A stretch of 52,888 bases of DNA from an uncultured Nitrososphaeraceae archaeon (GCA_963825865.1 CAWGVG010000054.1:1-52888); one strand, 5' to 3'; shown: positions 6,862 to 40,247, numbered from the stretch's first letter. The notes: generated by a model not told the origin, from the letters alone. Numbers and translations are program-made.

Positions 6862-6865
6862 ACTC

Positions 6866-11603: not shown

Positions 11604-11647
11604 TTCTATGTATTATTAATTGCTACAAATAGGTAATATAACCAAAT

Positions 11648-11685
11648 CCAAATATGCAACTGAAACATAAAACATGCATATTTGG
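11648..11685. promoter_or_regulatory. Perfect palindromic operator CCAAATATGCA-N16-TGCATATTTGG upstream of the YeiH gene
   Basis: 11 bp perfect inverted repeat; minus-strand TATA (TTATATTA, 11634-11641) 7 bp from the 10 bp half-site. Confidence 0.85.
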
Positions 11686-11902
11686 TATATTATCAAACGT
11701 TTCTCAGAATATCAAGTTTATGATTTCAGTTAGATTATCTAGACTTTCAAAATGGTCCATACCCTACTTGAACCCTTTATGGAAAGGAGTTCACATACGA
11801 CGACGACAACATTGACATCATTTATTTGTAAACATAACATTAAATTGTTTTTTTTATGAAATATGAGCTCCATGAAAGAGGTTGCCGACCTGCTAAAAGA
11901 TG

Positions 11903-12190
11903 CTATGAAAATCTATATGTTTCGGTTGCTGTTAGAAAACATACTCTAGCTTTATTATCTATCTTTTTTATCTCATTATATAATTCGGGACCACTCATCT
12001 TGGGCATGTCTATATCAAGGATCAACATGAGGTACAGGCCAGCTTTCAAATTTTCTAATGCTAACAGGGGATCAGTGAATGTATCGACTTTGAAACCATT
12101 ATCCTCAAGTACTAGTTTCAATGCCAAATTACTATTATCTAATTCATCGTCAACAACTAATATTCTTTTCATTAATAATTGCTGGTCCAT
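11903..12190 (-). CDS. Single-domain response regulator (receiver), C-terminus degenerate
   Basis: RILVVDDE, ILDIDMPKMSG, VCFLTA. Confidence 0.85.
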   Translation of the reverse strand: MDQQLLMKRILVVDDELDNSNLALKLVLEDNGFKVDTFTDPLLALENLKAGLYLMLILDIDMPKMSGPELYNEIKKIDNKARVCFLTATETYRFS

Positions 12191-12227
12191 CAAAAACTGC
12201 TTACTGATTAATTATTTATTATCGATT

Positions 12228-12265
12228 CTAAATATGCTAATTTCTGAGTTTACATGCAACTACTA
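12228..12265. promoter_or_regulatory. Operator copy upstream of response regulator
   Basis: CTAAATATGCT-N16-TGCAAC; AT-rich TATA-like box 7 bp away; ATG 48 bp from the proximal half-site. Confidence 0.6.
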
Positions 12266-12496
12266 CCACTAACTTGAGTAAATGGATTCAAGGATTAAAT
12301 GATGACACAATTATTGCTCAAATATGCAAATTAGATATGATACAGGCATTATTGGCGTAATGTGAAAGATAACCTACATGTATTATTGAATATACTGTAC
12401 CTAATGATACTGAATACTGGTAACAAATGTGTATAACATAAGTATTTTGCATCTTTGAAAGCGCATATATGTACAACATTACAAAATGATAAGATA

Positions 12497-12842
12497 ATGT
12501 CATACACAAAACTTTATCTGGCAATTGCAGGGTTGATGACAATGCTAGTGACTACAGCCATTGTTACTAATCCTATAAAAATTGCAAATGCACAAGAACC
12601 AACAACACGACACTGCGACTGCAAATCAAACCGAAATAAATGTAGACCAGAAAATAAATGAGCTGAAGGCAAAGTTTCCAGAATTAAGTTCACTTCAAGG
12701 AACTGAAGTGAAGGATTTAATTCAAAAAGTATTAAGTTTGGACAAACAACAAGCACTCAAGACATTAGCGGCCTTTCACATTCTAAGAAATCTGCAGGAA
12801 TATAGAGAGCTTTCCTCAGGAGGTACCAATAGCACTGGTTGA
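12497..12842 (+). CDS. Secreted small protein, copy 1 (frameshifted)
   Basis: Signal peptide MSYTKLYLAIAGLMTMLVTTAIVTNPIKIANAQ; paralogue at 38041 reads through without the shift. Confidence 0.75.
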
Positions 12843-13224
12843 TAACCTTTTGAGCGAGATAGAGGAAATGGGGAGGGGCCAACTGTTTCAATACTAGTTA
12901 TCTGTCATGTCAGATAACGGTGACAGTGATAGCTGTGCCATTATTCTTTGACCTGCAAATTGGGCTGATGTTCATCTATATGAGCGCCCCTCTCTCCTAT
13001 ATTACCGCTTTGTCTATTAAATTACCATAATTATTCAGAATATCGTAGTAGACTGTTTGTAACCACACACAGGACTTTTATGATAAGTTCTTTTTGATAA
13101 TATAATGATGACTCGTCGTTTTTCCTAATTCTTAACATATAAAATCTTTATACTCCATTAAAATGTATATGCAAATTTTGCATGTTTTATTGTCATTCAG
13201 ATCACAATATTGACATTTTATACG

Positions 13225-13262
13225 CCAAATATGCATATTTTTGATAACTTTTGCATACTCTT
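13225..13262. promoter_or_regulatory. Operator copy upstream of Cys-rich four-helix gene
   Basis: CCAAATATGCA-N16-TGCATAC; also at 38766-38803. Confidence 0.75.
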
Positions 13263-13292
13263 ATATACTATAGTCTCTGAGGTAATAGTGAA

Positions 13293-13661
13293 ATGAGTAG
13301 TACTAAAACAAATATTACCAAACTTCAAAACCCAAAATATCAAACGTGCGTAGACGCTTGCAATAACTGTTGTGAAGCATGTGAGGCTTGCTGTACAGCC
13401 TGTCTTATGGATCAGAAGAATGTAAGCATGACTACAAGATGTATGATGATGATGCGTGACTGTATAGATATGTGTATGACTGCATCTTGCTTTATGTCAA
13501 GAGGAAGCGAGAATGTAAAACAGGTATGCAATATGTGTGCAGATATATGCGAAGCATGTGCTATGGAATGCGAAAAATTACAAGACAAAATGGAAGAGTG
13601 TAGACAATGCGCTCAAGCATGTAGAATGTGTGCACAAGAATGTAGGAATATGACAAGATAA
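13293..13661 (+). CDS. Cys-rich four-helix-bundle protein (DUF326/Csp3/YhjQ-like copper-storage family)
   Basis: 22 Cys in CxxxC/CxxC spacing over 122 aa, no signal peptide. Confidence 0.88.
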   Translation: MSSTKTNITKLQNPKYQTCVDACNNCCEACEACCTACLMDQKNVSMTTRCMMMMRDCIDMCMTASCFMSRGSENVKQVCNMCADICEACAMECEKLQDKMEECRQCAQACRMCAQECRNMTR

Positions 13662-13813
13662 GATAGATAAGAAATTCTATTTTTTTTTTCACATACATAT
13701 TTTTATTTTAATTTTTTCTTGTAAATCTACTATTATGATGTAAATACATAATCTTTTTATCACTCCTATCATTATGCAAGTTTTCTGGATAGATCGACTT
13801 AGGAGCGTTTTGA

Positions 13814-14114
13814 TTAAGGCATTGGATCTAATATCATTTTCAAATATGCTATTTCAGACTCTATAGCCTTTTTCTCAATTTCGTCATCAATATTGTAATC
13901 TGTGGGATATTTTAAGAGCCTTTCACATGCATTTAATTCTTCAAATATGATATCTCTTTTATCAAGGCATAAGCTATGGTATGAATCAACAAACGAGTAA
14001 GTAACTTTCTTAGTAATATTGCCTTTCTTACACCCGCACATTTTTGCAATAATTGAGGAGGGTTGTTCTGTTTCAATGACATTCAATTCTTCTTCTTTTC
14101 ATCTCCATCATCAT
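13814..14114 (-). CDS. Conserved hypothetical small protein (KMCGC motif), copy 1
   Basis: Duplicated at 39436 with conserved frame; has TATA plus degenerate operator at 14170-14221. Confidence 0.7.
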
Positions 14115-14720
14115 GTCTACTATCAACAGTATTACCTGTCAGCATTCATCAGCAATATACACATCTCTACAATATAACTACATGCAAATACGTGATCTAA
14201 ACCTGAAACATGCATTTTTTGCATAGTCTTAATGTTATGTTATTTTTTGTGACCCTTTATAATAAAGCAATTTCATAGCGAACCATCACAAATATCTAAA
14301 TTCCAGAATACAAAGTAATAGAACATTAGAGTATAACATTTGTGTTAGTGGAATCGATTCATCAATACTATTTTTAGAAGATAGAACGGCTTTAAGAAAA
14401 GCAATCTCTGCGTCTGACTGAATTTTACTTCCTTTTTGTTTGATTATCGTCAAGTTCTATATTGTATACCGATTAACATAAATTCACTAACACTTTGCTA
14501 ATATTTTGAGTTGAAATACGTCGATAGTTGTTGGCGAACTTTTGTTAACTGGTATAGTATGCACGCTATAACAACAACCAAACTGTATAATTAATGGTTA
14601 CATGGAATGTGCAATAAACTTACTTCAATTAAACAAACTAATATTAGACTTCTCTACCCCTTGTTTTGGATAATTTTTAAATATAATTGGCCATCATTTT
14701 TCCCTCTTTTGTAGGACAGG

Positions 14721-15784
14721 AGACCTGTTGCGTAATTGAAGGCTTACAGCTATATTTTACGTCTTACAGCATTCATTCGGTGATGCTGTCTTGATGTCTT
14801 ATGCTAGACTATCTAAGAGGTCTTTGTTATTTAGATCATTTACTGGACTTGAAATATCAGAATTTGATGTTATTGCCAAAGATATAGAATCAAAAGATGA
14901 TGAGCATGAAAGAAAGCGTCTTTCCAATAGGAAAAGAGAAAGGAAAGTAGGTGCGGGTAGACCATTCAAACTAAAAGTTAAAGAAAGGTTCTTGATACTT
15001 TTAGTGTATTATAGGCTGTACATAACGTATACACTTTCAGGATTTCTGTTCGATCTTGACCAGAGTAATATCTGCAGAGATATATCTATGCTTGAACCAC
15101 TTGTCAAACTGTGTATCCCATTGCCAAAGAAGTTGTATAAACGTACAAGAAGACTTAGAACTATAGATGAAGTAGAAGAAGGACTTTCCCGGTTTCAAAG
15201 CATTTATTGACTCTTCCGAACAAGAGATCCCAAGACCAAAGAACAAGAAGAAGGAGAAAGAGCTATTACTCTGGCAAAAAGAAGAAACATACTGTAAAGA
15301 CACAATATATGGTAAACAGTGAGGGGACCATACTGCACAAAACAGGTCATGATCGGGGAAGAATACATGATTATGAGATTTTCAAAAAGAAACATCCTAC
15401 AACAACTCCACCGCAAGTTGAGAATGTATTTGATTTTGGGTACATGGGAATTGAGAATGACTTTCCCACTGTAAAGTCTGTGCTTCCAGTTAGAAAGAAA
15501 AGGAAAAGTGAACTCTCAGATGAAGAAAAGAAACACAATAGAAAGCATTCCAAGCTAAGGGTAATAGTCGAGCATACTGTGAGCAGAATTAAAAAGTTCG
15601 GAATAACGGGTACTATTCTTAGAAATAAGCTTGTAAGATATGATCATGCTTCTGACATTGTTTCAGGACTAGTAAATTTCAGGATAATGCGAACCAATGG
15701 AATGATGTTACTTTAGAAAGCAAGCAAGCCAAAGTTAAGTATCATAAAGAGATTTTCTTTCTTTCGTAATTACGCAATAGGTCT
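14721..15784 (+). mobile_element. ISL2-type IS copy 2
   Basis: TIRs AGACCTGTTGCGTAATT / AATTACGCAATAGGTCT; transposase ORFs 14791-15210 and 15207-15716; flanks AGG/AAT do not match. Confidence 0.93.
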
Positions 15785-16190
15785 AATCTATAATAAGTAT
15801 GCGACATGAGTAACGCCTTCCATTTTATCGCACTTATTGCATATCCATGTGATATGCTCTTTGCAAATATTGCAGACTGATATCAGAATTAGATGTGTTC
15901 CACATGCTCTACAAGGGACATTTCTTAGAAAGTCATAAAACTATCTATCAAAAAAAACGAATGATCTTATTGAGAAAATTATTTTCCTTTGCTATTATTA
16001 CATTTAGTGTAGTTGTTATGACGCTTTTTAGTTGATGTGGCATAATCATATTATGAAGTATAATTATATGTGTTGTGTGTTATATTACTGCTGTCACACA
16101 GTATTTTGAAATGATATGTGCAAACATCCAATGCGAGACTGCTAATTTGCATATTCGATTATATAACTTACTTTGAAACTATGCTAAGGT

Positions 16191-16236
16191 TGCATTGTGT
16201 TTGTTAAAAATTGCATATTTGAAGTGGCTTATATCA
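16191..16236 (+). promoter_or_regulatory. Operator plus TATA in front of a decayed ORF starting at 16260
   Basis: TGCA-N17-TGCATATTTG, 7 bp, TTATATCA; ATG 48 bp downstream but the frame has several stops. Confidence 0.6.
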
Positions 16237-16998: not shown

Positions 16999-17262
16999 CT
17001 AGACACCGCATCGGCTCTCTATTATTATTCTACCTGTCCAGCAAAGAGGACAGCGTATATGTTCCTCGCCGGATATGCTGCCAAGCTTTCCAGATAAATC
17101 AAAGTAAGATACATGCCATGAACATGATTGGCATAGAAGGAAATATTTTTTATATACTAGCAATGTTTGTTTTTGATTATTAATGGCGGTAGATCCACTA
17201 TGCATTTGTTCTAATACTAAACCTTTTGTTTCTGCTTTCTCCATTTCTGGAACTATAGCCAT
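16999..17262 (-). CDS. Small Zn-finger protein (FLLCxSCxW...CPxC), copy 1
   Basis: Two CxxC pairs; near-identical copy at 37540, paralogue at 22203, interrupted copy at 28730-31279. Confidence 0.8.
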   Translation of the reverse strand: MAIVPEMEKAETKGLVLEQMHSGSTAINNQKQTLLVYKKYFLLCQSCSWHVSYFDLSGKLGSISGEEHIRCPLCWTGRIIIESRCGV

Positions 17263-18164: not shown

Positions 18165-18350
18165 TAGTAGTAAGTCTTAATAGATAAAAGACTACCTAAT
18201 AATACTTTACAATAGACAGTATTTCTGTTATATATAATATCCGACTATAGTTTGACTTGTATATACAATTCTTACAATTACACATTCTTTTCAATTTGTA
18301 ATACTGTTTTATTAGCATTGGGATTCTAATGAAATCTTGGAGTAGACAGT

Positions 18351-19417
18351 AGACCTGTTGCGTAATTGAAAGCTTACAGCTATATTTTACGTTGTACAGC
18401 ATTCATTGGGTGATGCTGTCTTGATGTCTTATACAAGATTATCGAAGAAACCTTTGCTATTTAGATCATTTACTGGACTTGAAATATTAGAATTTAATGA
18501 TTATCTATGCATGGAAATAGAATCAAAATACAATGCTACATGAAAGGAAGAGACTTTGTAAAAGGAAAAGACAAAGAGATAGTAGGTGCAGGTAGACCAT
18601 TCAAGCTGAAAGTCAAAGAAAGATTCTTGATGCTTTTAGTCTATTACAGACTGTACATAACATATACACTTTCAGGATTTTTGTTTGATCTTGACCAAAG
18701 CAACGTCTATAGAGATATTTCTATAATCGAACCTCTGGTTAAACGGTGTATCCCATTGCCAAAGAAATTGTATAAACCATACAAAGAAGAAGGCTTAGAA
18801 CCATAGATGAAGTTGAAGAGTACTTTCCAGGTTTCAAGGCATTTATAGACTCTACTGAACAGGAGATACCAAGGCCAAAGAACAAAAGAAGAAGGAAGAG
18901 CTACTATTCGGGTAAAAAGAAGAAACATACTGTAAAAACACAATATATGGTAAACAGTGAAGGTTTGATACTACAGAAAACAGATCATAAGAGAGGAAGA
19001 AAACATGATTATGAGATTTTCAAAAATAAACATCCTACGACTCCATTACAAGTTGAAAATGTCTTTGACCTTGGGTATATGGGAGTTCAGAATGATTTTC
19101 CCACTGTAAAGTCTGTACTGCCATTTAGAAAGAAAAGGGAAAAGTGAACTCTCAGATGAAGAAAAAAGTCACAATAGAAAGCATTCCAAACTAAGGGTAA
19201 TAGTCGAACATACGGTAAGCAGAATTAAAAAGTTTGGGATAATGGGTACTAAATTTAGAAACAAGCTTGGAAGATACGATCGTGCTTCTGATATAGTTTC
19301 AGGACTGATAAATTTCAGAATAATGATGCGAACTAATAATAGGGTGTTACTCTAACAGAACAGGATTAAGACTGAACCATCATAAAGAGATTTTCTTTCG
19401 TAATTACGCAATAGTCT
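18351..19417 (+). mobile_element. ISL2-type IS copy 3, 3 bp TSD AGT
   Basis: Both TIRs present; AGT on both flanks; transposase fragmented. Confidence 0.93.
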
Positions 19418-19516
19418 AGTATTGTTTGTACAACATATCGATTTATTATACTCTAAGAGTCAACAACCACTGTGAGATGCTAAAACATCAACAATGTATG
19501 GAAGCAGCATGGTTAA

Positions 19517-21828
19517 TTAATTTTCTTTTGACCGTAAAACATTGAGAGCTGAACCTGCACGAAACCATTCTATTTGTGATTTGTTATAAGAATGATGTAA
19601 GTTTATCTCTTCCCTCGTTCCATCGTTGTGGTGCAAGTAACACACTACAGTCATTCCAGGTTGGAGGCCTTGAAGTCCTACTATACTTATTCTGTCATCT
19701 TCCATTATTTTATCATATTCGTGTGCATTCTCAAAAGTCAAGGCAAGTACACCTTGTTTTTTAAGATTGGTTTCATGTATTCTTGCAAAACTTTTTGCAA
19801 TAACGGCAGCACATCCAAGATATCTAGGAGTCATAGGCAGCATGTTCTCTGCTACTTCCTTCGCCATAGTTTTGGTCCCCTACAATAATCCATTTCAGAC
19901 CTTTTTGTTTATACTCTCTGGCTATATGCGGAAATGACTCAATTTCGCCGGTAAGAATATTTTTACCATTTCCTACTCCTCCTGTGTAAGCATTAACTGC
20001 ACCAAGAAGCAAGTTGTCACTAATCTTGTCAATATGACCTCTGTACATTAACCATGCCCCTGCAGGAGAGATATGATCTGTGGTACACTTTCCTTTCACC
20101 TTTGAAAGTATTGGGAGATTTTGATAATCATTTCCATCCCATTGAGTGAACGGTTCGAGCTTCTGCAATCTGCTACTGTTTTTGTTTATTATTACATCAA
20201 TACTATCAGGATCATCAGATGGTGGGACATAAACATCCTTGACATTTTTGAAACCATCTTCAGGAACCTCCGGTGCCACCTTAGGAGGATCTAACTTAAA
20301 TTTTGTTCCATCATTTGCAGTTAACTCGTCAGTAAAAGGATTAAATGATAGCCTTCCGCCAAGCGCTAAAGCTATAACGATTTCTGGGCTACCAATAAAA
20401 TTCATTGTCTCCCTTCTTCCATCATTTCTCCCCTGGAAAGTTTCTGTTGTATGATGTGACGATAGTATTTGGTTCTCCTTTTTTCAACTCTGGCCTGCTC
20501 CACTGACCTATACATGGACCACATGCATTTGCAAGAACAGTGGCACCAATTGCCTTCATGGACTCCATCTGTCCATCTCGTTCAATCGTCGCTCTTACCA
20601 TTTCAGAACCAGGGGTTACAAGAAGCGGTACTTTTATTTTTACTCCTTTTGATTTAGCTTGTTCTGCAATGCTTGCTGCACGTGACATATCTTCGTAAGA
20701 AGAATTTGTACAGGATCCAATGAGCGCAACTGAAATTTTATCAAGGTAATCGTTCTTTTTCACATCTTCTGCCATTTGGGATATCGACCGTGCAAGATCT
20801 GGAGTGTGAGGTCCTACGACGTGGGGTTCTAGTTCAGAAAGATTAACTTTAATTAACTGATCGAAATATTTTTTTCTTGAATTCTTTTCTTCTATTTCAG
20901 CAGCTATTTCTTGTTCTATTTCATAATCTTCAGTTAATAGTTCAATATGTTCATTTGCAAGATCAGCTATACTACTGCGGCCAGTTGCTCTAAGGTAGGT
21001 ATCCATTCTCTTATCGTATTGGAATATAGAACATGTAGCACCAAGCTCAGCTCCCATATTTGTTATCGTTGCCTTTCCAGTACAGCTAATTGATTTTGAA
21101 CCAGGCCCAAAGTATTCTATTATTGCGTTTGTACCACCAGACACAGTAAGCTTTGAAGCAACATACAGTATGATATCTTTAGGAGCAGTCCAACTGTTGA
21201 GATTTCCTGTCAGGTATACACCAATGCGCTTTGGATACAAAAGCTCCCATGGCATTCCAGCCATTGTTTCAGCTGCATCTAAGCCTCCAACACCTATTGC
21301 AGCCATTCCAAGGCCTCCTGCGTTTGGTGTGTGTGAATCAGTTCCTATCATTAGACCGCCTGGAAATGCATAGTTTTCAAGTACTACCTGATGTATGATT
21401 CCAGCACCAGGCTTCCAGAATCCAATACCGTATTTTCTTGATGCAGATTCTAAGAACTTGTAAACTTCATTGTTTTCATAAATGGCAGCCTTTGTATCAG
21501 ATTCACCTTCAACTCGTGCTTGTATTAGATGATCACAATGAACTGTAGTTGGAAAAGCAGCTCGTTTTAGGCCTGCTTGCATAAATTGAAGAATTGTCAT
21601 CTGTCCAGTAACATCTTGTAATGCTACTCTGTCTGGTTGTAAAAAGACATAACTTTTGCCTGGTTGTGGTTCGTTTTTTTTATCTATATCAACAAGATGC
21701 CCTATTAAGATTTTTTCACTTAATGTAAGCGGCCTATTAACAATTTTTCTAAATTCTGAAATATTATTTTCTAATTTTTTATAAGTTGCGTAAACTAGCT
21801 CTGGAGTTGTTGCTATTTGATTATTCAA
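19517..21828 (-). CDS. acnA: Aconitate hydratase (three ORF pieces)
   Basis: [72 protein letters not shown]. Confidence 0.95.
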
Positions 21829-22202: not shown

Positions 22203-22517
22203 TTAGTCGAATTTGTAATGCGCATTGTGTGGAATTGGTAATGACTCTATTTTGTCATTTTTGCAAATTGGACATTTTGTTATTAGTGTGCTAGATGTAA
22301 GAACACTATTTTTATTACTATTACTACCATCGGACATAATAACATGGGATGCGCACCAAAAACATGAGCGGCAAAGTAAAAAATGTATTTGTTGCAAATA
22401 TATTAATCTGTCAGTCTTTTGTGTCGCATTACTTTGTCTTCTTTTGATGTTTTGCAAATCAACAGTTTGTTGTTGCATCTCTTCTTTTTTTGAAGATATT
22501 GTTTCTATTATAGACAC
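22203..22517 (-). CDS. Small Zn-finger protein, paralogue of 16999
   Basis: HFLLCRSCFWCAS...CPICK; promoter has CAATATAA-N7-TAAATATGCA-N16-CGCATGC (22541-22592). Confidence 0.75.
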   Translation of the reverse strand: MSIIETISSKKEEMQQQTVDLQNIKRRQSNATQKTDRLIYLQQIHFLLCRSCFWCASHVIMSDGSNSNKNSVLTSSTLITKCPICKNDKIESLPIPHNAHYKFD

Positions 22518-22866: not shown

Positions 22867-23903
22867 TCAAAGCCAGTCTGAATGAACTGGAGTGTATACT
22901 TTTTTTCTTGCATCTTCCAGACTACTTTTTTCAATCACTATTCCTTGATTTTTGAGTTCTTCAATTGCATTTTGAATAGTTCTTCTTGGAAGATGGGTCA
23001 GATTAATTAGCTCTGCTTGATCTATAGGATGTTTTGTTCTGACTATATAATATATAAATTTGGTTGCAGGACCTCCTTCCGGATCCTTTCTTAAATATGA
23101 AACGCTAAAAGCCGCTTTTGATAAGAAACCTCTTCTCTGGGATTCAATGGATGTAATAGCATCTGGGCGAACTTCAGACAGATTTACTCGTTGACCAAAT
23201 TCAGCTATCAAAGCAGATTGCTGTGATTCAAGAGGTGTTTCAAAAATGAATATGTTTGGCGGGTACTTTGATGTAAGAGCACCTACTACATTCCATTTTA
23301 TAAGGCCTTTCTCATCATAAATACCAACATTAACTCCTTCGTTTGCTTCAAGTATTATTTTCGTTGAATTTATTTTGACAGCCTCTTCAATTTCGTTTAA
23401 AGTTTTATCAACATCAAGTTGGCGCCTTGGATTCTTTTTTGCCCACCTTCCAATAAAAAGATAGATTATTTGATAGTATAGTATCGACAATTTTTTTCTT
23501 TTGTTCTACATCTATATCAATATTATTTTCGCCAATTTCAACCATGTCAAATCCTATCTTTGCAGCATCTTTAACAAATTTACCAAATGAATCTTCCAGT
23601 ATAGCATACTCTGTAATTGTCACTCCCAGTAGAGACCAATATATCAAAATCATGATATAATTTAATTTTCTTTTCCAAAAGAGTTTCGGGAATAAGTAAA
23701 GGAATAACACTATAGATTTTTACTATATCTATAAATGGAGCAATTATTTCCAAGCTGTCTTTATCAAAAGATTGCGCCATCTTATCTATTATACAGGTAA
23801 GCCCTTCCTTCCGTGGTTTTTTTGAATCTATTCTCTCTTTATCAGAACCATCGATCAGCAATTTATTATTCTATCCTTTGACAAAGAAAGATAAGAAGGA
23901 CAT
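22867..23903 (-). CDS. Phosphosulfolactate synthase (ComA)-like domain fused to C-terminal MarR-type winged helix, frameshifted
   Basis: KPRKEGLTCIIDK, VGKK, IFETP..SQQ..LI.EFG..VNL, ES.RRG; then KFIYYIVRTKHPIDQAELINLTHLPRRTIQNAIEELKNQGIV..SSLEDARKKVY in the same ORF (22867-23490). Confidence 0.85.
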
Positions 23904-28855: not shown

Positions 28856-29970
28856 GGGGTTGTTGCCTAATTTGATATCGCATATGGTGTCACCTTTATT
28901 CCCAGTTTGTTTGCACATTGTAGTCTGTTAAGGACTTCTAGGTTCCAGCCTATTGATTTAATTAATCCAAATCTTTTCTGATTGTTCTTTAATCTGAATG
29001 TGCAGTATAGCTGATGATGATGATGTTTAGTTTCTTCAGCTCCAAATATTCCTTCTATCAATCCTCTATAACGATATATTGATGCATTGAATATCTTTGC
29101 AGCCTTCTTTCTGTATTTGTTCTTCTTACTACTGCTATTCTTGTTCTTGGAGTTTTTTCTCTGCTTGATATTTGGAAGCATGTTCATGTTAAACATGACT
29201 GGAAGTTCTTGTTGCCATCATAAGCTCTGTCACCATTGAATGTTGAACCTGCAAAGTCTAATCTATATTTCTTCAATCTGTTTAGCATTGTTCGGAGTAC
29301 TGGAGAATCGTGTGTTTTCTTACTGGTAAGTCGTGTATTAAGTATTATGAGATGATCAAGTATCCCTGTGATATGCCATTTCAGATACTGTTTTACCCTT
29401 ATCTTTTCGAATTTCTTTACTACTATTTTTGATAAATCGTACTTCGTATCCGTACCTGTTTGTCTCTACACCGGTGCTATCTGATGCGAGAATACCCTTC
29501 TTCCAGCCTGATTCTTTCAAACATAGATAAGCTGACCATATTCAGTACACGTTCAAGATATATCAGCGGTATCTTCTTGAATGTACGTGATATCCACGTA
29601 TGATCTGGATATGGCTCGTTATTCCATGGCAAATTAAGAGAGGGTACTATATTCTGTATATCTCTGTACGTTGAACCGAAAACAACCATCAATATACAAA
29701 TACAGACAAGTTTTTCCCAAGAATGAATTGGTTTCCTTCCTCTATTACTGTTCTTCTTTGAAGTAGGAGGAGGATTTTCTTTGACCAGAGAAACTATATT
29801 TTCGATAAGCATATCTCGTTCTAGGGTATGTGCTAGATGGTAACACAACCAGTAACCATCTTTCCTCTTGTGCTTGCAAGTCAATAAGAGGGTGCATACC
29901 CTTTCTAAGCTAAATCGAAAACCGTGAAATCATATTTACAGTCAATTAAAACGAATTAGGCAACAACCCC
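28856..29970 (-). mobile_element. 1115 bp DDE IS (IS5/IS4-like), 17 bp perfect TIR, 9 bp TSD
   Basis: TIR GGGGTTGTTGCCTAATT; TSD GCGCAGAAG at 28847-28855 and 29971-29979; transposase PDHTWI, DSTG, GDRAYD, YRYRGLIEGIFG in frameshifted pieces. Confidence 0.93.
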
Positions 29971-30011
29971 GCGCAGAAGTGATATTTTTTGTATACAAAT
30001 TATGGTTCTGT

Positions 30012-30335
30012 TCAACCTAGTGTTGTTCTGAATTGTTGTTCAAATTTTGTTGGTAAATAATTTTGAAAGATGGTTAGATAAACCTTGTGTTTTTTAGCCA
30101 ACCTATGCCATTTCTCGAACATTTCAAATGGAAATTCTATGTTTTTACAGATTAATTCTACTTGTAATCGATCTACAAATTCCTTAGTATTTGCTTTTTC
30201 TGATATTATAAGCTTCACAATATAGCGGTCTTTGATGAAATACCGTCTTGTCGTTTCAACACCTCCTATAATTTCATTAAAACCATGTTTTAATAAAAAT
30301 TTTCTAATTTCTCTTACATCATACGACCTTGCCAA
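30012..30335 (-). CDS. HicA-like protein (weak), reads into left TIR
   Basis: DVREIRKFLLKHGF N-terminal helix as in HicA; lies downstream of HicB-like gene; lacks GSH motif. Confidence 0.45.
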   Translation of the reverse strand: MARSYDVREIRKFLLKHGFNEIIGGVETTRRYFIKDRYIVKLIISEKANTKEFVDRLQVELICKNIEFPFEMFEKWHRLAKKHKVYLTIFQNYLPTKFEQQFRTTLG

Positions 30336-30388
30336 TTAGTTCGAGGTTCTTTTGAGAACAATAAAAACATGATCTATAAATTTTATAG

Positions 30389-30682
30389 TTAGTAAAGAAT
30401 TGGCACTTTTATTTCCTGTTGTGTCCATCCTTCCTTTGCGTTTATTTGGTCTGTTTCAACCGAGACTATTTTCCCATATTGTTCTAGAATCTTTTCACCT
30501 TCATGTGGAAAAGTCTTTAAATATATTGTAAGTTCGTGAGATATTTTACTAGTAAGTTCTTGTACGGTTTTACCTTCCACTATGATAAAAGGAATTTCCT
30601 TGCATTGTCCTACTAATATACCTGTATAACCTGGTTTAAATCTAACACCAACGGTAAGAGATACAGTTTTACTCTCTACCAT
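30389..30682 (-). CDS. HicB-like antitoxin-fold protein
   Basis: LVGQCKEIPFIIVEGKTVQELTSKISHELTIYL resembles the HicB core. Confidence 0.6.
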   Translation of the reverse strand: MVESKTVSLTVGVRFKPGYTGILVGQCKEIPFIIVEGKTVQELTSKISHELTIYLKTFPHEGEKILEQYGKIVSVETDQINAKEGWTQQEIKVPILY

Positions 30683-30717
30683 AGACGATATAATAATGCT
30701 CTATATAATATGTATTT

Positions 30718-30909
30718 ATGGTTTTGTTGAAATTTTTCAGTTCACATGAATTACGAGATATATCCGCAGAGGAAATGATAAACGACCTTAGAGGGGTCAT
30801 TAGGCAGAAAGATAATGAGATTAATACACTGCATTCAGAAAAATGTACAGTTGTCTACCGAATTACAAAAAATCAAGACAACAGAGCCGCCTATGAAGGC
30901 TGGATTTGA
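30718..30909 (+). CDS. Small hypothetical coiled-coil protein
   Basis: 63 aa ORF divergent from hicB-like gene across a shared TATA-rich spacer. Confidence 0.5.
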   Translation: MVLLKFFSSHELRDISAEEMINDLRGVIRQKDNEINTLHSEKCTVVYRITKNQDNRAAYEGWI

Positions 30910-30928
30910 CGCACTTAAGTGACTAGCC

Positions 30929-31273
30929 GTGACAAATCTCTTTCGCTGTAAACTATGCGACCTAACGGTCATAGCTGAAGAGCTGGAATTTCACCGCTGT
31001 AAACGAGTCGTGAATTATAGAATTGACAAAAATATCATTTGGCTATATGATGGAGAGAAATGGTATCCAAGAAAACTATTATCTAAATCACCAACACGAA
31101 ATGAACAACAATTTAGAACAACAAAAGATGAAACAGAACCCAAATTATGTTTGTTTTTGAGTAATATTGGTTATAGATCCTATATTATACATTTGTTCAA
31201 AACTAATTCCTTTTTGTTTTTTGTAGAGTTCACTCCACTCTTACAAGCTTTCCCGTCCTCATGCCGTATATGA
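30929..31273 (+). CDS. Small CxxC-x11-HxC zinc-finger protein reading out through the right TIR
   Basis: FRCKLCDLTVIAEELEFHRC...LYDGEKWYP. Confidence 0.6.
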   Translation: MTNLFRCKLCDLTVIAEELEFHRCKRVVNYRIDKNIIWLYDGEKWYPRKLLSKSPTRNEQQFRTTKDETEPKLCLFLSNIGYRSYIIHLFKTNSFLFFVEFTPLLQAFPSSCRI

Positions 31274-31450
31274 ACCCATAGACTGGTGTATCTATTATAT
31301 TCTAATATGGAATATAATAGATTGGCAATATAACTAAATCCAAGTATACAAAATAAATGTAGCATACGCATTATTGACATCATTTGAAAAAAGAAAGATA
31401 AATGACATTGCACGCAAAATACTTATGCATATATTCGCTTGCAGACCTGC

Positions 31451-31501
31451 GACTATTGCATATAATGGTGATAAATTGCATGTTTCACAGCAGTAATATC
31501 T
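31451..31501 (+). promoter_or_regulatory. Operator plus TATA of rhodanese gene
   Basis: TTGCA-N16-TGCATGTTTC, 7 bp, TAATATCT. Confidence 0.65.
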
Positions 31502-31535
31502 TAGAATCATTATTAATATAGCGATACAAAAAATT

Positions 31536-33099: not shown

Positions 33100-34176
33100 T
33101 TAGTTCACTTCACGTAGTCCCTTTTCTTTGAGTATAGTATTTAATAATGTCAAATCATATATGCCAGACAGATCTGGTTGCTGTTTTTGCCCTTTTGCCA
33201 AAAAACCAAGGTTGTATGCTTCACTCGCATATTTAAAAAATGATTTCTTAATAGGATCATATGTGAAATCTATTCGTGATAAAGCTTGTTTTAATTCATC
33301 TTCTGGGATCGCTTTACCTGTAAGTTTTTTAAGCTCAGTATCAAATACTTGTACGGCGTTATTTTTATGGTCATTAATCCACAATGTTTCATTTGTATGT
33401 AAAGCCAATAATTTCTTTATTATGTCTGGATTGTTCTTAAGATAATCTGTTCTAGCAATAATATTGGTCATCACAAATTTTCCATCTGGCCACAAGCTTC
33501 TTTCATCTAGAAATATTTTTCCATTGGCTTCTTTGACTAATATGGCACCCCATGGTTCTGGCACCCATGCTCCGTCTAGTTGTTTTTTTAGGAATAGTGT
33601 GAGGATATCAGACAAATTTGTAGAAATTACCTCAACACTTCCACCATTTTCTTTAGTTTTGTACCCATTTCTCATTAAATAGGATCGCAGGGCTACATCT
33701 TGAGTATTACCTAATTGTGGAGAAGCAAACTTTTTACCTGCAAAATCCTTGGCTGATTTAATTCCTGAATCATTTCTGACCACAAAAACTGCCCCTCCAC
33801 TAGATGCACCTGAAATAATTCTGACATCTCTTCCTTCAGATGCTACATAACCATTGATTGCAGGGTTAGGACCAACGTATGCGACATCTATTTGATTTGC
33901 AAATAATGCATCAATTACAGATGTCCCCGCATTAAAGACTATTGGATGTACTGCAATGCCATTCTTACTGAATGTATTTTCAAAGTCTCCATCATTTAGC
34001 CCTATAACAGCCTGCGCATGGTTGAGATTAGCAAAATATCCAATTCTTAGTACATTTGAAGTTGCACCGACCGTAATATTACTAGTATTTGCTGGATTTG
34101 TATTGTAAAATATAGTGCTTACAACTACACCAATTATTATGGCTGCAGATATTCCCAGACTTACCTTAGCTTCCAT
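33100..34176 (-). CDS. ssuA: ABC transporter substrate-binding protein, sulfonate/nitrate (SsuA-like)
   Basis: RIGYFANLNHAQA, YVGPNPAIN, ASPQLGNTQDVALR, AWVPEPW. Confidence 0.88.
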   Translation of the reverse strand: MEAKVSLGISAAIIIGVVVSTIFYNTNPANTSNITVGATSNVLRIGYFANLNHAQAVIGLNDGDFENTFSKNGIAVHPIVFNAGTSVIDALFANQIDVAYVGPNPAINGYVASEGRDVRIISGASSGGAVFVVRNDSGIKSAKDFAGKKFASPQLGNTQDVALRSYLMRNGYKTKENGGSVEVISTNLSDILTLFLKKQLDGAWVPEPWGAILVKEANGKIFLDERSLWPDGKFVMTNIIARTDYLKNNPDIIKKLLALHTNETLWINDHKNNAVQVFDTELKKLTGKAIPEDELKQALSRIDFTYDPIKKSFFKYASEAYNLGFLAKGQKQQPDLSGIYDLTLLNTILKEKGLREVN

Positions 34177-34257: not shown

Positions 34258-34510
34258 TATCTTAAAATGAAAACTCTGCGTATTTAGAAATCTCAATAAA
34301 TGTAAAATTTGTTTAAATCTTCTTATATTTCTATATATGCTCGCTGACTTGGATGCGATTGATAAATTAAAACACAAGAGATTAATAATGAAGAAAAACA
34401 ATCTTGAAGACACAAGAAGAAAAACCTATTATCCCGTTCAATATGATTGGTTTTAACCATTAATAAAATGCTAATGATAATTGGGGGGGTTATGATTTAA
34501 CTCATAGATG

Positions 34511-34589: not shown

Positions 34590-35411
34590 ATGCTGAGTAG
34601 AGACGAATCACAGTCATCAGAAAATGTTTTACAGATAAAGAATGTATCAAAGTTCTATTATGGGAATGGTGGTGGTGATGCAGCTGACTATAATAGACAT
34701 ATGGTCTTAAACAATGTCAATATAGATGTTAAAAATGGCGAATTTGTCACTATAGTAGGACCATCGGGTTGTGGTAAAAGCACATTACTTAACATAGTCG
34801 CAGGTATTGACAGGACATATATCGGAGAAATAGCGATTTATGGTCAACCCACTGATTCTTTTGCCACTAATGTTGATCGTAATAGAATAATGATTTTTCA
34901 AGAGGGAGCTCTTTTTCCTTGGCTCACTGTTCGTGAAAATGTAGAGTTTGGTTTAAAAATATCAAAAGTTCCTAAGGACAAAAGAAACAAAATTGCTATG
35001 CATTATATAGAAATGGTTCAATTATCAAATTTTGCAGACGCTTATATCCATCAACTTTCAGGAGGAATGAAACAACGCGTCGCCATTGCTCGAGCTTTAG
35101 CACTAAACCCAGAGATCTTGTTGATGGACGAACCATTTGCAGCATTAGATGTAAGCACAAGACGGTTGTTACAGGAGCAACTGCTTCAAATTCATCAAAG
35201 TACAAAAAAAACAGTTCTATTTGTCACACATAACATTAATGAGGCTGTAGTATTGGGCGACAGAGTTATTCTTATGTCACCAAAACATGAAAATATAAAG
35301 AAAGAGTTTAGAATTAACCTTCTGCATCCACGACAGATAAATCATCCTATTGTAGATGCAATTACAAAGGAGATTTTACAGGAATCCAAATATTTTGAAC
35401 AAATGAAATGA
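34590..35411 (+). CDS. ssuB: ABC ATP-binding protein (SsuB/TauB/NrtD)
   Basis: GPSGCGKS, LFPWLTV, LSGGMKQR, LLMDEPF, FVTH. Confidence 0.9.
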   Translation: MLSRDESQSSENVLQIKNVSKFYYGNGGGDAADYNRHMVLNNVNIDVKNGEFVTIVGPSGCGKSTLLNIVAGIDRTYIGEIAIYGQPTDSFATNVDRNRIMIFQEGALFPWLTVRENVEFGLKISKVPKDKRNKIAMHYIEMVQLSNFADAYIHQLSGGMKQRVAIARALALNPEILLMDEPFAALDVSTRRLLQEQLLQIHQSTKKTVLFVTHNINEAVVLGDRVILMSPKHENIKKEFRINLLHPRQINHPIVDAITKEILQESKYFEQMK

Positions 35412-35481: not shown

Positions 35482-36279
35482 ATGACAGAAAAAAAATTAA
35501 AAGAGATCGATGTTGAAGATATAGGCCATGTAATACTATTCCTCGCTGCACTTACAGGGATATGGCAACTAATATTTAGCCTCGGAATATTTCCCAGGGT
35601 CTCTTTGCCATCTCCAGCAATGGTGGCTCAGTCTTTTGTAATGCTATTTGCTAATGCCACATTAATTACAAGCATAAGTATGACAATGTGGAGGTTCGTC
35701 ATTAGTTTCTCAACTTCTATTATTCTAGGAGTTGGAGTTGGATTGTTGATGGTAAGATTCCGTAGCTTTGGTAAAACTATGAGCTCGTTTGCGGTAGGAT
35801 TACAATCATTTCCCAGTATAGCATGGGTACCGTTTGCAATTTTATTAATCGGATTAAATGATTTTGGTATTTTCTTTGTTGTTATTATGAGTTCTATCTT
35901 TTCGGTCATGATATCAACATATAGCGGAATTAGCAATATACCAACAATCTATCTTCGGGCGGCTGAAAATATGGGTGCAAAAGGATTATCGTTATTCAGG
36001 TTTGTAATGATTCCAGCTGCCACACCGTCATTAATTGTTGGTATAAGACAAGCATGGTCATTTGCTTGGCATGCATTAATAGGAGCTGAAATACTGATTG
36101 CAGCATCAGTAGGTTTAGGTCATATTTTGCTTGTTGGAAGAGAATTCCAGCTTATGGACCAAATAATTGCATCGATGATAATCATATTTGCCATTGGTTT
36201 TGTATTTGATAGATTAGTTTTTAACAAACTTGAGAATAAAGTGAGACACAGATGGGGATTGAACCAAACTAAGGAATAA
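35482..36279 (+). CDS. ssuC: ABC permease (SsuC/TauC)
   Basis: LPSP, LQSFPSIAWVP, YLRAAENMGA (EAA loop), LIGAE, GLG. Confidence 0.9.
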   Translation: MTEKKLKEIDVEDIGHVILFLAALTGIWQLIFSLGIFPRVSLPSPAMVAQSFVMLFANATLITSISMTMWRFVISFSTSIILGVGVGLLMVRFRSFGKTMSSFAVGLQSFPSIAWVPFAILLIGLNDFGIFFVVIMSSIFSVMISTYSGISNIPTIYLRAAENMGAKGLSLFRFVMIPAATPSLIVGIRQAWSFAWHALIGAEILIAASVGLGHILLVGREFQLMDQIIASMIIIFAIGFVFDRLVFNKLENKVRHRWGLNQTKE

Positions 36280-36790: not shown

Positions 36791-37440
36791 ACATGGAAGA
36801 AGATATGATTGTATAAATATTCCTTAATTACACTTATTATTTATCTTCTCTGTCAACTGTCAATCATTTATACTTTAAAAAGAAGAAGGTAAAGATTAGA
36901 GGGTTACTATTAGTTATGGCTCAGGTTGTGACACTCTCATATTACCACCACTAAAAATATTAGTTTTTGCACGTAGATGAGAAGAGAAGACCTGAATCCG
37001 CATACAGTGTTTGAAACTGGCTAAGACAGGACTTCTATTGTCACTATATCATATTAACAAAGGGATAATACAGCTGATAACGATTCTTTTTAAAGCCTAT
37101 TTTTCTAAATTTACTTTAATGTTCAAAATATATAAGGATGTTTCGAAAGGGATAATGGTAGCAGAGGGTTTTAAGAGGCAGTAGGAAGGGGACTTGAATA
37201 ATTGCAATATCTAGATTGGATATATTTATATCCACATGCAAGTAACTTTATAGAGCATGTTTTCAATGCTACCATGGTAATACATACAACATATAGGGTT
37301 TTCCCTATGTCTGTGCAGCCCTTCCTTGAGCATTTGTAGTATACTTTGTGTAATGTAGCAAAAGGATAAAGAATATAATGTTGCCTTGTTATATTATTCA
37401 TTGAAAACACCTCTTGGGACGTTATGTCTCTGGGTGGAGG

Positions 37441-37483
37441 CTACAGTCTGATTGTGCTTTCCACGGCTGCAATCAGACTGTAG
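37441..37483. repeat. 14 bp perfect inverted repeat (hairpin)
   Basis: CTACAGTCTGATTG-N15-CAATCAGACTGTAG. Confidence 0.85.
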
Positions 37484-37539
37484 TAGCAATTGTTTTCCAT
37501 TGTTCATCTAAGGCACCTGCCTTTTTACTAGATGCGTTA

Positions 37540-37821
37540 TTACTTCGTTGAAGCTATCGCCTGCCCTGATTGGCTCTCTATTATTATTCTACCTGTCCAG
37601 CAAAGAGGACAGCGTATATGTTCCTCACCGGACATGCTGCCAAGCTTTCCAGATAAATCAAAGTAAGATACATGCCATGAACATGATTGACATAGAAGGA
37701 AATATTTTTTATATACTAGCAATGTTTGTTTTTGATTATTAATGGTTGTAGATCCACTATGCATTTGTTCTAATACTAATCCTTTTGTTTCTGCTTTCTC
37801 CATTTCTGGAACTATAGCCAT
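37540..37821 (-). CDS. Small Zn-finger protein, copy 2
   Basis: Near-identical to 16999-17262 except the last residues. Confidence 0.8.
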   Translation of the reverse strand: MAIVPEMEKAETKGLVLEQMHSGSTTINNQKQTLLVYKKYFLLCQSCSWHVSYFDLSGKLGSMSGEEHIRCPLCWTGRIIIESQSGQAIASTK

Positions 37822-38040
37822 ATTTCATACACGATATAGTAGACTAGCAATATAATTAAATCCAAATATGCAAATTAGATATTGTATGTGCATTATTGGC
37901 GTAATGTGAAAGATAACCTACATGTATTATTGAATATACTGTACCTAATGATACTGAATACTGGTAACAAATGTGTATAACATAAGTATTTTGCATCTTT
38001 GAAAGCGCATATATGTACAACATTACAAAATAATAAGATA

Positions 38041-38445
38041 ATGTCATACACAAAACTTTATCTGGCAATTGCAGGGTTGATGACAATGCTAGTGACTACA
38101 GCCATTGTTACTAATCCTATAAAAATTGCAAATGCACAAGAACCAACAACAACTCCGACGACTGCGACTGCAAATCAATCCGACATAAATGTCGACCAGA
38201 AAATAAATGAGTTGAAGGCAAAGTTTCCAGAATTAAGTTCACCTCAAGGAACTGAAGTGAAGGATTTAATTCAAAAAGTATTAAGTTTAGACAAACAACA
38301 AGCACTCAAGACATTAGCGGCTTTCCACATTCTAAGAAATCTACAGGAATACAGAGAGCTTTCCTCAGGAGGTACCAATAGCACATGGTTGATATTCTTT
38401 AAGAGTGAGATAGAGGAAATGAGGAGGGGCCTGTTACAATACTAG
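38041..38445 (+). CDS. Secreted small protein, copy 2
   Basis: Signal peptide, Thr-rich linker, helical domain. Confidence 0.75.
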   Translation: MSYTKLYLAIAGLMTMLVTTAIVTNPIKIANAQEPTTTPTTATANQSDINVDQKINELKAKFPELSSPQGTEVKDLIQKVLSLDKQQALKTLAAFHILRNLQEYRELSSGGTNSTWLIFFKSEIEEMRRGLLQY

Positions 38446-38831
38446 TTATCTGTCATGTCAGATAACGGTGGCAGTAGTGATGCCATTATTCTTTGACCTG
38501 CAAATTGGGCTGATGTTCATCTATACGAGCGCCCTTCTCGCTCCTCTATTACTGCTTTGTCTGCTAAATTACCGTAATTATTCAGATATCCTATAGACTG
38601 TTTGTAACCTACTGACTTTTCTGATAGGTTCTTTTTCATAATATAATGATGACTGGTCATTTTTCCTAATTCTTAACATATAAAATCTCTATACACCAAG
38701 AAAATGTATATGCAAAATTTGCATGTTTTATTGTCATTTAGATCACAATATTGACATTTTATACGCTAAATATGCATATTTTTGATAACTTTTGCATACT
38801 CATAAATACTATAGTCTTGATGTAGTAGTGA

Positions 38832-39197
38832 AATAAGTATAAAACAAATATTACCAAACTTCAAAACCCAAAATATCAAACGTGCGTAGATGCTTGCAAT
38901 AACTGTTGTGAATCCTGTGAAGCTTGTTGTACAGCCTGTCTTATCGATCAGAAGAATGTAAGCATGAGTACAAGATGCATTATGATGATGCGTGACTGTA
39001 TGGATATGTGTATGACTGCATCTTGCTTTATGTCAAGGGGAAGCGAGAATGTAAAACAGGTATGCAATATGTGTGCGGATGTGTGTGAAGCGTGTGCTAT
39101 GGAATGCGAAAAATTACAAGACAAAATGGAGGAATGTAGACAATGCGCTCAAGCATGTAGAATGTGTGCACAAGAATGTAGGAGTATGACAAGATAA
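38832..39197 (+). pseudogene. Cys-rich four-helix-bundle protein, copy 2, start codon lost
   Basis: GTGAAATGAGTAG in copy 1 is GTGAAATAAGTAT here; rest of the frame is intact. Confidence 0.7.
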
Positions 39198-39435
39198 GAA
39201 CTAGAATAAGAAATTCTATTTCTTTTTTTCACATACATATTTTTATTTAATTTTTTCTTGTAAATCACATATGATGACAATAATCTTTGTTATCATTCCT
39301 ATCAAATATTGTGTATAGATTAGATATCTAATTGAGGTAGTTATTCTACCTGTCTTGCAAATATGACATAATATATATCCCCCACACCTAATATGGCAAG
39401 TTTTCTGGATGATTGACATAGAAGGAGCTTTTTGA

Positions 39436-39734
39436 TTAAGGCATTAGATCTAATATCATTTTCAAATATGCTATTTCAGATTCTATAGCCTTTTTCTCAA
39501 TTTCGTCATCAATATTGTAATCTTTGCTATATTTTAAGAGCCTTTCACATGCATTTAATTCTTCAAATATGATATCTCTTTTGTCAAGACATAGGCTATG
39601 GTATGAATCAACAAACTTATAACTTACTTTCTTAGTAATATTGCCTTTCTTACACCCGCACATTTTTTGCAATAATTGAGGAGGGTTGTTCTGTTTCAAT
39701 GACATTCAATTCTTCTTCTTTTCATCTCCATCAT
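39436..39734 (-). CDS. KMCGC-motif small protein, copy 2 (frameshifted)
   Basis: Paralogue of 13814. Confidence 0.7.
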
Positions 39735-40247
39735 CGGTCCTACTACTATCAACAGTATTACCTGTCAGCATTCATCAGCAATATACACATCTCTACAATA
39801 TAACTACATGCAAATACGTGATCTAAACCTGAAACACGCATTTTTTGCATAGTCTTAAAGTTATATTATTTTTTGTGACCCTTTATAATAAAGCAATTTC
39901 ATAGCGAACCATCACAAATATCTAAATTCCAGAGTACAAAGTAATAGAACATTAGATTATAATATTTGTGTTAGTGGAATCGATTCATCAATACTATTTT
40001 TAGAAGGCAGAACGGCTTAAAGAAAAGTAATCTCTGCCTCTGACTGAATTTTACTTCCTTTTTGTTTGATTATCGTCAAGTTCTATATTGTAGTATGCAC
40101 GCTATAACAACCAAACTGTATAATTAATGGTTACATGGAATGTGCAATAAACTTCAATTAAACAAACTAATATTAGACTTCTCTACCCCTTGTTTTGGAT
40201 AATTTTTAAATATAATTGGCCATCATTTTTCCCTCTTTGTATACAAT

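Follow-up and report, generated by a model that had tools for sequence, protein, structure and literature searches.

Introduction

Archaeal transcription factors that bind beside the core promoter offer the closest described parallels to the element reported here. TFB-RF1 of Pyrococcus furiosus and Ptr2 of Methanocaldococcus jannaschii bind sites directly upstream of the B recognition element (BRE) and TATA box, Ptr2 with two tandem sites and a proposed recruitment of TBP and TFB. TrmB/TrmBL1 and SurR of the Thermococcales combine a ligand- or redox-sensing domain with a winged helix; TrmBL1 and SurR activate from upstream of BRE/TATA and repress from downstream, and SurR governs a sulfur response. 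In bacteria, the dedicated regulators CysB, Cbl and SsuR switch on sulfonate uptake genes (ssu, tau) under sulfur limitation, with regulator and transporter genes linked, while MocR/GabR and BirA use an enzyme-derived domain as the ligand sensor of a DNA-binding protein. Here we describe a short oriented DNA box, TGCRTATWTR, in a 52,888-nt stretch of DNA from an uncultured Nitrososphaeraceae archaeon (the window), together with a candidate regulator encoded in the same gene cluster. The window is the whole of contig C54, about 1% of a 62-contig, 4.98 Mb genome with 35.5% G+C; the names that databases give to close homologues agree with its placement in Nitrososphaeraceae.

The locus shares with TFB-RF1 and Ptr2 a site directly upstream of BRE/TATA, but the sequence is a different one, the proposed regulator is neither of the Lrp family nor of the PF1088 type, and activation is here a prediction. 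The combination of sensing domain and winged helix proposed below recalls TrmB/TrmBL1 and SurR, whereas families and motifs are unrelated, the putative sensor is a phosphosulfolactate-synthase barrel, and a box after TATA occurs in only four genera. CysB, Cbl and SsuR are LysR-type proteins working at sigma-70 promoters, in contrast to the archaeal TATA/BRE promoters and the unrelated protein found here; MocR/GabR and BirA are bacterial, with other folds and another domain order.

Ammonia-oxidising archaea carry out much of soil nitrification. To our knowledge, hardly any pair of transcription factor and operator has been defined in them, and we know of little on their nutrient sensing beyond ammonia and copper. 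In our reading, to which we give a probability of roughly 55%, the box is the operator of a compact, conserved Nitrososphaeraceae regulon for acquiring and handling sulfur compounds, and the predicted binder is a fusion of a ComA-like domain with a winged helix-turn-helix (ComA-wHTH). The operator, the gene set and the fusion protein appear to be new, although the kind is known: a transcription factor site beside BRE/TATA and an enzyme-fold sensor. The sequence-only reading that first pointed out the motif knew of no description of it, and the literature searched, PMC11507031 and PMC11237513 included, describes neither the motif nor a ComA-wHTH regulator in the parts within reach, which exclude supplementary tables; those of transcriptome studies of ammonia-oxidising archaea or of fusion surveys may hold relevant rows.

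Results

The box and its distance from TATA

The sequence-only reading had proposed a palindrome, TGCA-N16-TGCA, recurring at fixed spacing from TATA boxes. Its perfect form, CCAAATATGCA-N16-TGCATATTTGG, a 38-bp palindrome, is present at 11648-11685 as claimed, with near copies at 17303 and 37862. The plain TGCA-N16-TGCA pattern has 8 occurrences in the window, where 100 shuffles averaged 1.77 +/- 1.29 and never reached 8. Turned towards the gene, the sites share the layout [TGCA]-N16-TGCATATTTGR-N6-TWATATW. The proximal unit is an oriented box, TGCRTATWTR, lying 6 nt upstream of a TWATAT TATA box at 14-16 promoters between 11.6 and 39.9 kb. This box-N6-TATA unit, a short fixed distance in fixed orientation upstream of BRE/TATA, is found in 13 of 14 distinct window promoters. 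A second, looser TGCA-centred box usually stands 20 bp, that is two helical turns, farther upstream, and the start codon follows 31-42 nt past the TATA box. The promoters are listed below, with scores from the position matrix described further on.

11635..11685, minus strand: YeiH-like promoter; distal half 11675-11685, box 11648-11658, TATA 11635-11641; perfect palindrome; 27.5 bits
12215..12258, minus strand: promoter of the receiver-domain gene; distal TGCA 12255-12258, box 12228-12238 (AGCATATTTAG), TATA-like 12215-12221; 18.9 bits
12428..12471, plus strand: promoter of a signal-peptide protein; box 12448-12458, TATA 12465-12471, distal core degenerate (TGTG); duplicate 37972-38015; 19.3 bits
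13232..13267, plus strand: promoter of the Cys-rich four-helix-bundle gene; boxes at 13232 and 13252, the proximal one abutting TATA; duplicate 38773-38808
14171..14214, minus strand: promoter of a 90-aa gene (p90); degenerate box CACGTATTTGC 14184-14194, TATA 14171-14177; duplicate 39797-39840; 15.5 bits
16191..16235, plus strand: promoter of p104/ssuBC type with N17; box 16212-16222, TATA 16229-16235, ATG 31 nt past TATA, followed by no long open frame in the present assembly; 26.1 bits
17290..17333, minus strand: promoter of the zinc-ribbon gene copy 16999-17262; 27.5 bits
22542..22585, minus strand: promoter of p104 (second zinc-ribbon family, 22203-22517); 23.5 bits
24937..24980, minus strand: promoter before a small open reading frame (ORF; ATG 24909), p219 (24107-24766) and ComA-wHTH; 20.2 bits
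31327..31370, minus strand: promoter of a zinc-ribbon gene copy, the gene being split by a 2.28-kb insertion at 28850-31140; 16.2 bits
31457..31500, plus strand: rhodanese promoter (ATG 31536, gene to 32418); 25.4 bits
34208..34251, minus strand: ssuA promoter (gene 33100-34176), a direct repeat of the box; 27.4 bits
34518..34561, plus strand: promoter of ssuB (34590-35411) and ssuC (35482-36279); 27.3 bits
37849..37892, minus strand: promoter of the zinc-ribbon gene copy 37540-37821; 26.9 bits

The palindrome does not hold as the general form. The ssuA, rhodanese and ssuBC promoters carry the box as a direct repeat (TGCRTATAAT-N10-TGCRTATTTG), those of the YeiH-like and zinc-finger genes have an inverted distal box, and orientation is strict only for the proximal box; the palindrome is thus one of several arrangements. 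Nor does the Cys-rich site keep the usual offset, its atypical proximal box having no spacer before TATA. The 20-bp period was confirmed in 39 non-redundant sites picked by proximal box and TATA only, since TGCA recurs at the unselected positions -20 to -17 in 20-27 of the 39 (T27, G20, C23, A20).

The offset from TATA, which had been put at 7 bp from a 10-bp half-site and amounts to 6 nt from the 11-mer, proved specific. Over the whole genome, TGCRTAWWT-Nx-TWATAT gave 0, 9, 2, 2 and 2 matches for x = 7 to 11, the N8 form standing out against 0-2 for the neighbouring spacings, and reversed-pattern controls gave 0-2. Eight of the nine N8 matches lie in C54, as do 8 of 9 genomic matches of TGCATWTWT-N8-TWATAT, 6 of 8 of ATATGCA-N16-TGCA and all 6 of GCATATTTR-N7-TWATAT.

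We also scanned with a position matrix trained on 35 sites, all from other genomes. It recovered the sites at 11648, 12228, 12448, 14184, 16212, 17303, 22555, 24950, 31340, 31477, 34221, 34538 and 37862 and the duplicates at 37992 and 39810, all scoring 15.5-27.5 bits, and gave no match in the window outside 11.6-39.9 kb. The recurrences listed by the sequence-only reading were thereby all found again except the Cys-rich pair (13225/38766), which the matrix misses because its spacing differs. Genome-wide, 11 matches reached 20 bits, with C54 contributing 9, and 18 reached 18 bits, with C54 contributing 12. The two matches of 20 bits or more beyond C54 lie upstream of the second ssuA copy (C26:129544) and upstream of a beta-carbonic-anhydrase-like (beta-CA-like) gene followed by a zinc-ribbon gene (C49:3530); C22:94025, also among the best matches outside C54, is a copy of the 16212 promoter.

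The enrichment of the plain TGCA-N16-TGCA pattern is limited to the window: over the genome there is no N16 peak (106 matches, against 88 for N15 and 230 for N17, the last number reflecting codon periodicity). We rejected a genome-wide regulon, there being no N16 peak across the 4.98 Mb and the composite motif being almost confined to C54. With nearly all composite matches in C54 and three others in the genome, the regulon is therefore a small one on one island and not a global one.

Local copying accounts for part of the recurrence. Self-comparison revealed a 3.4-kb segmental duplication (12319-15787 at 37863-41298, 86-95% alike), the zinc-finger promoter is present four times in the window, and some promoters are alike over 27 nt, spacer and TATA box included. 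Once copies are discounted, 12 non-homologous contexts are left, in line with the earlier estimate of about 12, and these have nothing in common beyond box and TATA.

Genes behind the box

Four genes of the cluster that the text relies on are as follows.

10176..11603, minus strand: YeiH-family membrane protein gene in two pieces (10902-11603, 10176-10646)
11903..12193, minus strand: receiver-only response regulator (Response_reg), with orthologues in clusters of other genera
13293..13661, plus strand: Cys-rich protein, a Csp1-like four-helix bundle below the family cut-off, with orthologues in clusters
22870..23861, minus strand: candidate regulator ComA-wHTH, in three frames in the assembly, 333 aa open without two single letters

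Family searches gave the cluster a sulfur theme. The binding protein SsuA passes NCBIfam SsuA_fam (TIGR01728, 182.3 bits against a cut-off of 163.5), and the two-domain rhodanese matches the Rhodanese-like domain, while the ABC ATPase and permease match families below their equivalog cut-offs (SaoA 245 of 360, SaoP 141.6 of 295, SsuC 106 of 347). The claim of a YeiH target stands in part. The downstream fragment 10176-10646 matches YeiH/UPF0324 (PF03601, 36.2 bits, profile positions 200-300 of 304), but neither Pfam nor NCBIfam matched the 233-aa piece next to the promoter.

Several targets are small proteins for which Pfam and NCBIfam searches returned no family, namely ZnF, p104, p90, p219 and the signal-peptide protein. 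The zinc-ribbon proteins are 68-113 aa long with one CxxC...CPxC knuckle and variable N-termini, and Atlas matches of the zinc-ribbon protein are only unnamed Nitrososphaerota clusters. For p219 there was no usable Atlas match, and its AlphaFold2 model (mean predicted local distance difference test score, pLDDT, 70) had no Foldseek match at E <= 0.001. As the sequence-only reading had suggested for several small genes of this kind, the box ties the two zinc-ribbon families, p219 and the receiver protein into the sulfur-themed set. Genes for the large and small subunits of an aconitase-family enzyme (LeuCD/HacAB type, 19824-21828) lie between box-bearing promoters and have no box of their own.

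Conservation of the box in relatives

A motif scan of family genomes against background had been named as a check on the motif. A strict pattern matched in 8 of 24 other family genomes and in 0 of 16 genomes from other families of the order, and its control gave no match. In 80 other family genomes, the reversed control of a looser pattern matched 26 times and the pattern itself 138 times, often more than once per contig. The looser pattern was found in 55 of these 80 and, with the genus of the window included, in 17 of 18 genera; 76 of the 80 have a SsuA orthologue. These tallies include two unpublished genomes, G050 and G092, that have ssuA and ComA-wHTH matches each and no pattern match; without both, ssuA is found in 74 of 78, the pattern in 55 of 78 and ComA-wHTH in 65 of 78, and no other result depends on either genome. 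Locus L092 was excluded from alignment A1 and from the own-promoter count given below.

At ssuA loci, 14 of 30 scored at least 15 bits and 3 more about 10 bits against a null 99th percentile of 9.1, scores that are partly circular in that some of the sites were in the training set. Across ssuA promoters of 10 genera in 2 families, only the distal TGCR(TATAAT), the proximal TGCATATTTG, a spacer aAgC.. and TAATAT are kept, and the flanks are unrelated. The other 13 of the 30 ssuA loci include a second paralogue class with a different conserved promoter. These second-class paralogues (g14, g3; loci L031-L035, L038, L040, L044, L050-L052) have no box, and those of g3 have another conserved upstream block (...AAAACACATTTAATAGCGCTAATGTT...), which, judged from the promoter sequences, suggests that they are under separate control.

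Among 55 distinct boxes in the relatives' loci that we fetched, 33 sit before orthologues of window targets (SsuA 11, SsuB/C 2, rhodanese 4 in g8, g17 and g18, p104 6, ZnF 4, beta-CA-like 4 (Pro_CA) and ComA-wHTH 2), in a sample biased by the choice of loci for holding boxes or ssuA. Two clusters of other genera (G057:C154 and G013:C162) have a box before beta-CA/ZnF/receiver genes, and in the former further boxes precede rhodanese and p104, with Cys-rich and p219 genes alongside. Six window genes, for a 218-aa wHTH protein (26350-27006), a DtxR-like protein, GSDH, p90, the secreted protein and the YeiH N-terminal piece, had no counterparts in the fetched clusters of other genera, and for that reason we did not count them as conserved members. 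The regulon that the sequence-only reading had proposed thus keeps its core, a shared cis-element at a fixed TATA-side position, sulfur-themed genes and the same box on orthologues, but it is compact and not broad.

ComA-wHTH, the candidate regulator

The sequence-only reading had passed over one gene of the cluster, the probable regulator. Window positions 22870-23858, read in three frames, correspond to a protein of 328 aa in relatives. At each of the two frame changes (23432 and 23621), an independent contig assembled from short DNA reads is one letter shorter, and one RNA-library contig agrees on the 23432 difference. Omission of both letters yields a 333-aa open frame aligning to orthologue residues 1-328, so that the frameshifts are assembly errors or strain differences.

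The protein contains a full-length ComA domain (PF02679, 220.6 bits, profile positions 4-241 of 243). The AlphaFold2 model of this barrel matches stand-alone ComA (PDB 1QWG) in Foldseek with E = 1e-20 and a TM-score of 0.83. Stand-alone ComA (1QWG, 1U83) is of the same fold and family at about 31% identity, whereas the protein described here has about 85 extra C-terminal residues with winged-helix features and is encoded in a sulfonate-transport cluster. All 30 orthologues compared are 328-330 aa long with the extra conserved C-terminal domain and so are not single-domain enzymes of about 250 aa. The tail is probably a winged helix, to judge from a model with helices at 264-276, 281-288 and 292-304 and a strand at 308-311 (pLDDT 72-82), from a MarR_2/HTH match at residues 267-316 (21.6-22.9 bits against a cut-off of 27), from a weak PDB match to a SlyA/MarR chain (E = 0.008) and from PF12802 precomputed on some database homologues. 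Within it, the presumed recognition helix LPRRTVQ is invariant. Public annotation of the fusion reads only 'phosphosulfolactate synthase'; we know of no coenzyme M pathway in these organisms.

The fusion gene keeps company with the box-bearing genes. It is full length in 67 of the 80 family genomes and in 18 of 18 genera, and very often it is divergent to ssuA with 100-200 bp in between. Within the order, families f7, f15, f4 and f20 have it too, in f4 divergent from a box-bearing ssuA (TGCACAT variant), whereas most of the small-genome families searched gave no match. In the last 70 nt before the fusion gene a box occurs at 12 of 30 loci (g2, g14, g15, g18) against 0.7% of random 70-mers, mostly between TATA box and start codon, with one upstream of TATA as well in g2 and g18. 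Pfam scans of the cluster genes gave no Lrp/AsnC family, with no search aimed at Lrp genes. In the window itself, a 33-residue stretch at 34355-34453, between ssuA and ssuB, resembles the ComA-wHTH C-terminus (45% identity, E = 4e-5); from this likeness, it may be the remnant of the divergent regulator gene seen beside ssuA in other genera.

Discussion

Proposed mechanism

The following scheme would account for these observations. The regulon would comprise ssuA, ssuBC, rhodanese, the beta-CA-like gene, the YeiH-like transporter, the receiver protein, p219 and the two zinc-ribbon families, and the box, abutting the BRE, would be bound by the 328-aa ComA-like/winged-helix fusion encoded within the cluster. 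The enzyme-like barrel would sense a sulfur metabolite such as sulfite, phosphoenolpyruvate or a sulfolactate-like compound; that the signal is sulfur we infer from gene content. An oligomer would set two winged helices 20 bp apart on the same face of the DNA and, once bound, would help TFB and TBP onto the adjoining BRE/TATA. Activation is thus predicted from box position, by analogy with the systems introduced above. Where the box lies on or past TATA, as in the regulator's own promoter in four genera and at the Cys-rich gene with its abutting box, the same protein would repress. Since the proximal box lies upstream of the BRE and boxes stand on or after TATA elsewhere, we favour a ligand-controlled dual regulator.

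A bolder version is more tentative, and we hold it to be somewhat less probable than not. A protein of phosphosulfolactate-synthase fold may have been turned into a one-component transcription factor that senses sulfur and reads TGCRTATWTR, acting as activator or repressor by box position. This would be the first defined nutrient regulon of ammonia-oxidising archaea, conserved in Nitrososphaeraceae and at least one neighbouring family, and would give two zinc-ribbon families a function.

Several observations weigh against this account, beside the partly circular ssuA scores and the biased gene tallies pointed out above. All wHTH matches of the fusion are below the Pfam cut-off, and of the residues shared with the M. 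jannaschii enzyme its ComA domain retains most, so that the fusion may be an enzyme and nothing more. For joint loss of regulator and box the picture is mixed: G049, G090 (g5) and G024 have box-like ssuA promoters and no ComA-wHTH match, and G074 has the fusion gene with its ssuA at only 8.1 bits. At 18 of the 30 own-promoter loci, all of g17 included, there is no box. Moreover, a box abutting the BRE could equally block TFB, and the Csp-like Cys-rich protein and the beta-CA-like gene fit sulfur only loosely.

Alternative explanations

The best-surviving alternative keeps the box and the regulon and makes the binder a repressor that would hold TFB off the BRE and be released when sulfur is short. 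We regard it as unlikely, though a serious contender. The box ends only 6 nt from TATA, at the BRE, boxes touch or follow TATA at the Cys-rich promoter and the regulator's own promoter, and the target TATA boxes look canonical (TTATAT/TAATAT) and so may need no help. In contrast, the fixed distance and orientation with a second box two turns away match the layout of archaeal activators, and archaeal repressors for the most part bind over the TATA box or the start site. The TATA position signal in upstream regions of 1011 long ORFs was too weak to yield a promoter or BRE consensus of the genome with which the N6 spacers could be compared.

It is rather improbable that another protein, a ZnF/p104 zinc-ribbon or the receiver's partner, reads the box while ComA-wHTH is only a co-regulated enzyme. 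ZnF and p104 are always box-bearing, are the genes most often found behind a box, in the window and among relatives alike, and are restricted to Nitrososphaerota with no known family; the receiver gene shares the operon in g14 and g18. Yet such short proteins with one knuckle and variable N-termini have no recognisable DNA-binding domain, and the zinc-ribbon genes are not divergent from ssuA, unlike the wHTH fusion.

A signal other than sulfur, such as inorganic carbon, cyanate/nitrate, or copper or another metal, seems to us about equally doubtful. Inorganic carbon or cyanate/nitrate is suggested by the NitT/TauT-type transporter together with the beta-CA-family gene, which is conserved among the targets; the ATPase and permease stay below equivalog cut-offs, and their partial matches extend to nitrate and taurine transporters. 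Copper or another metal is suggested by the Cys-rich protein with its resemblance to copper-storage proteins. However, the binding protein passes the SsuA cut-off, and rhodanese, the YeiH family and a sulfite-using enzyme fold point to sulfur.

That no regulator is involved and the boxes are promoter sequence inherited by local duplication or carried on a mobile cassette is very improbable: the island is full of insertion sequence (IS) copies and duplications and some promoters share 27 nt, but neither extended homology around all sites nor an absence of orthologue conservation was seen, the 12 contexts being alike only in box and TATA, the boxes being kept where ssuA flanks have fully diverged over 10 genera, and the spacing being exact.

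These findings supply an exactly defined operator, a set of genes that many genera have kept and a named candidate regulator, all open to direct test in those cultured relatives whose genomes are complete, such as the genus of G001, G047 and G058. They suggest that soil ammonia-oxidising archaea take up organosulfonates under regulated control, and would offer a natural ligand-controlled archaeal promoter.

RNA-library contigs, assembly quality and island context

RNA-library contigs from three metatranscriptome studies cover p219, the start of ComA-wHTH, the 218-aa wHTH gene, rhodanese (from 31551 or 31607 on), ssuA, ssuB and ssuC. Three of them, from three studies, end at 34162-34170, just inside ssuA (start codon 34176), and the ssuA-ssuB intergenic box region is spanned by the DNA contig and not entered by RNA contigs. 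RNA contigs cannot define transcript starts; they give a weak indication that the TATA boxes behind the boxes are those in use, which has no bearing on regulation. None of the RNA contigs extends over 29515-31518, to which we attach no meaning. The deepest RNA-library contigs of the region (depth 25.5) belong to the 218-aa weak-wHTH protein, whose gene has no box.

Between 22000 and 37000, the window differs from the DNA contig by many single letters, among them those at 23432, 23621, 24930, 25114, 25562, 25739, 32539, 32614 and 35504. Broken-looking genes include DtxR-like 25217-25688, the rhodanese start at 31536, YeiH and polymerase B (49991-52014), and outside C54 there are only 1011 ORFs of at least 250 aa. 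The assembly probably carries indel errors, and errors of one letter would account for the breaks in all four of these genes. The 2.28-kb segment 28850-31140, with several small ORFs, is absent from a related population (run X2; joint 28849/28855 to 31134/31141); it splits the zinc-ribbon gene, whose ends lie at 28717-28856 and 31147-31389.

Four IS5-like copies (HTH_Tnp_4 and DDE_Tnp_4, 84-89% alike) lie at 8871-9866, 14555-15787, 18333-19418 and 40091-41298. Positions 1-7000 have 53-60% G+C against about 34% elsewhere and hold a terminase-like ORF (5189-6406, Terminase_6C), with an integrase N-terminal fragment at 7299-7721; the first 7 kb has the look of foreign DNA, bacterial and phage-like, or of a chimeric join. 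The right end, 43060-52014, encodes small HTH proteins (43060-43401, 47866-48144), a PriX-like primase domain (44021-44869) and the split family B DNA polymerase, and may be an integrated element.

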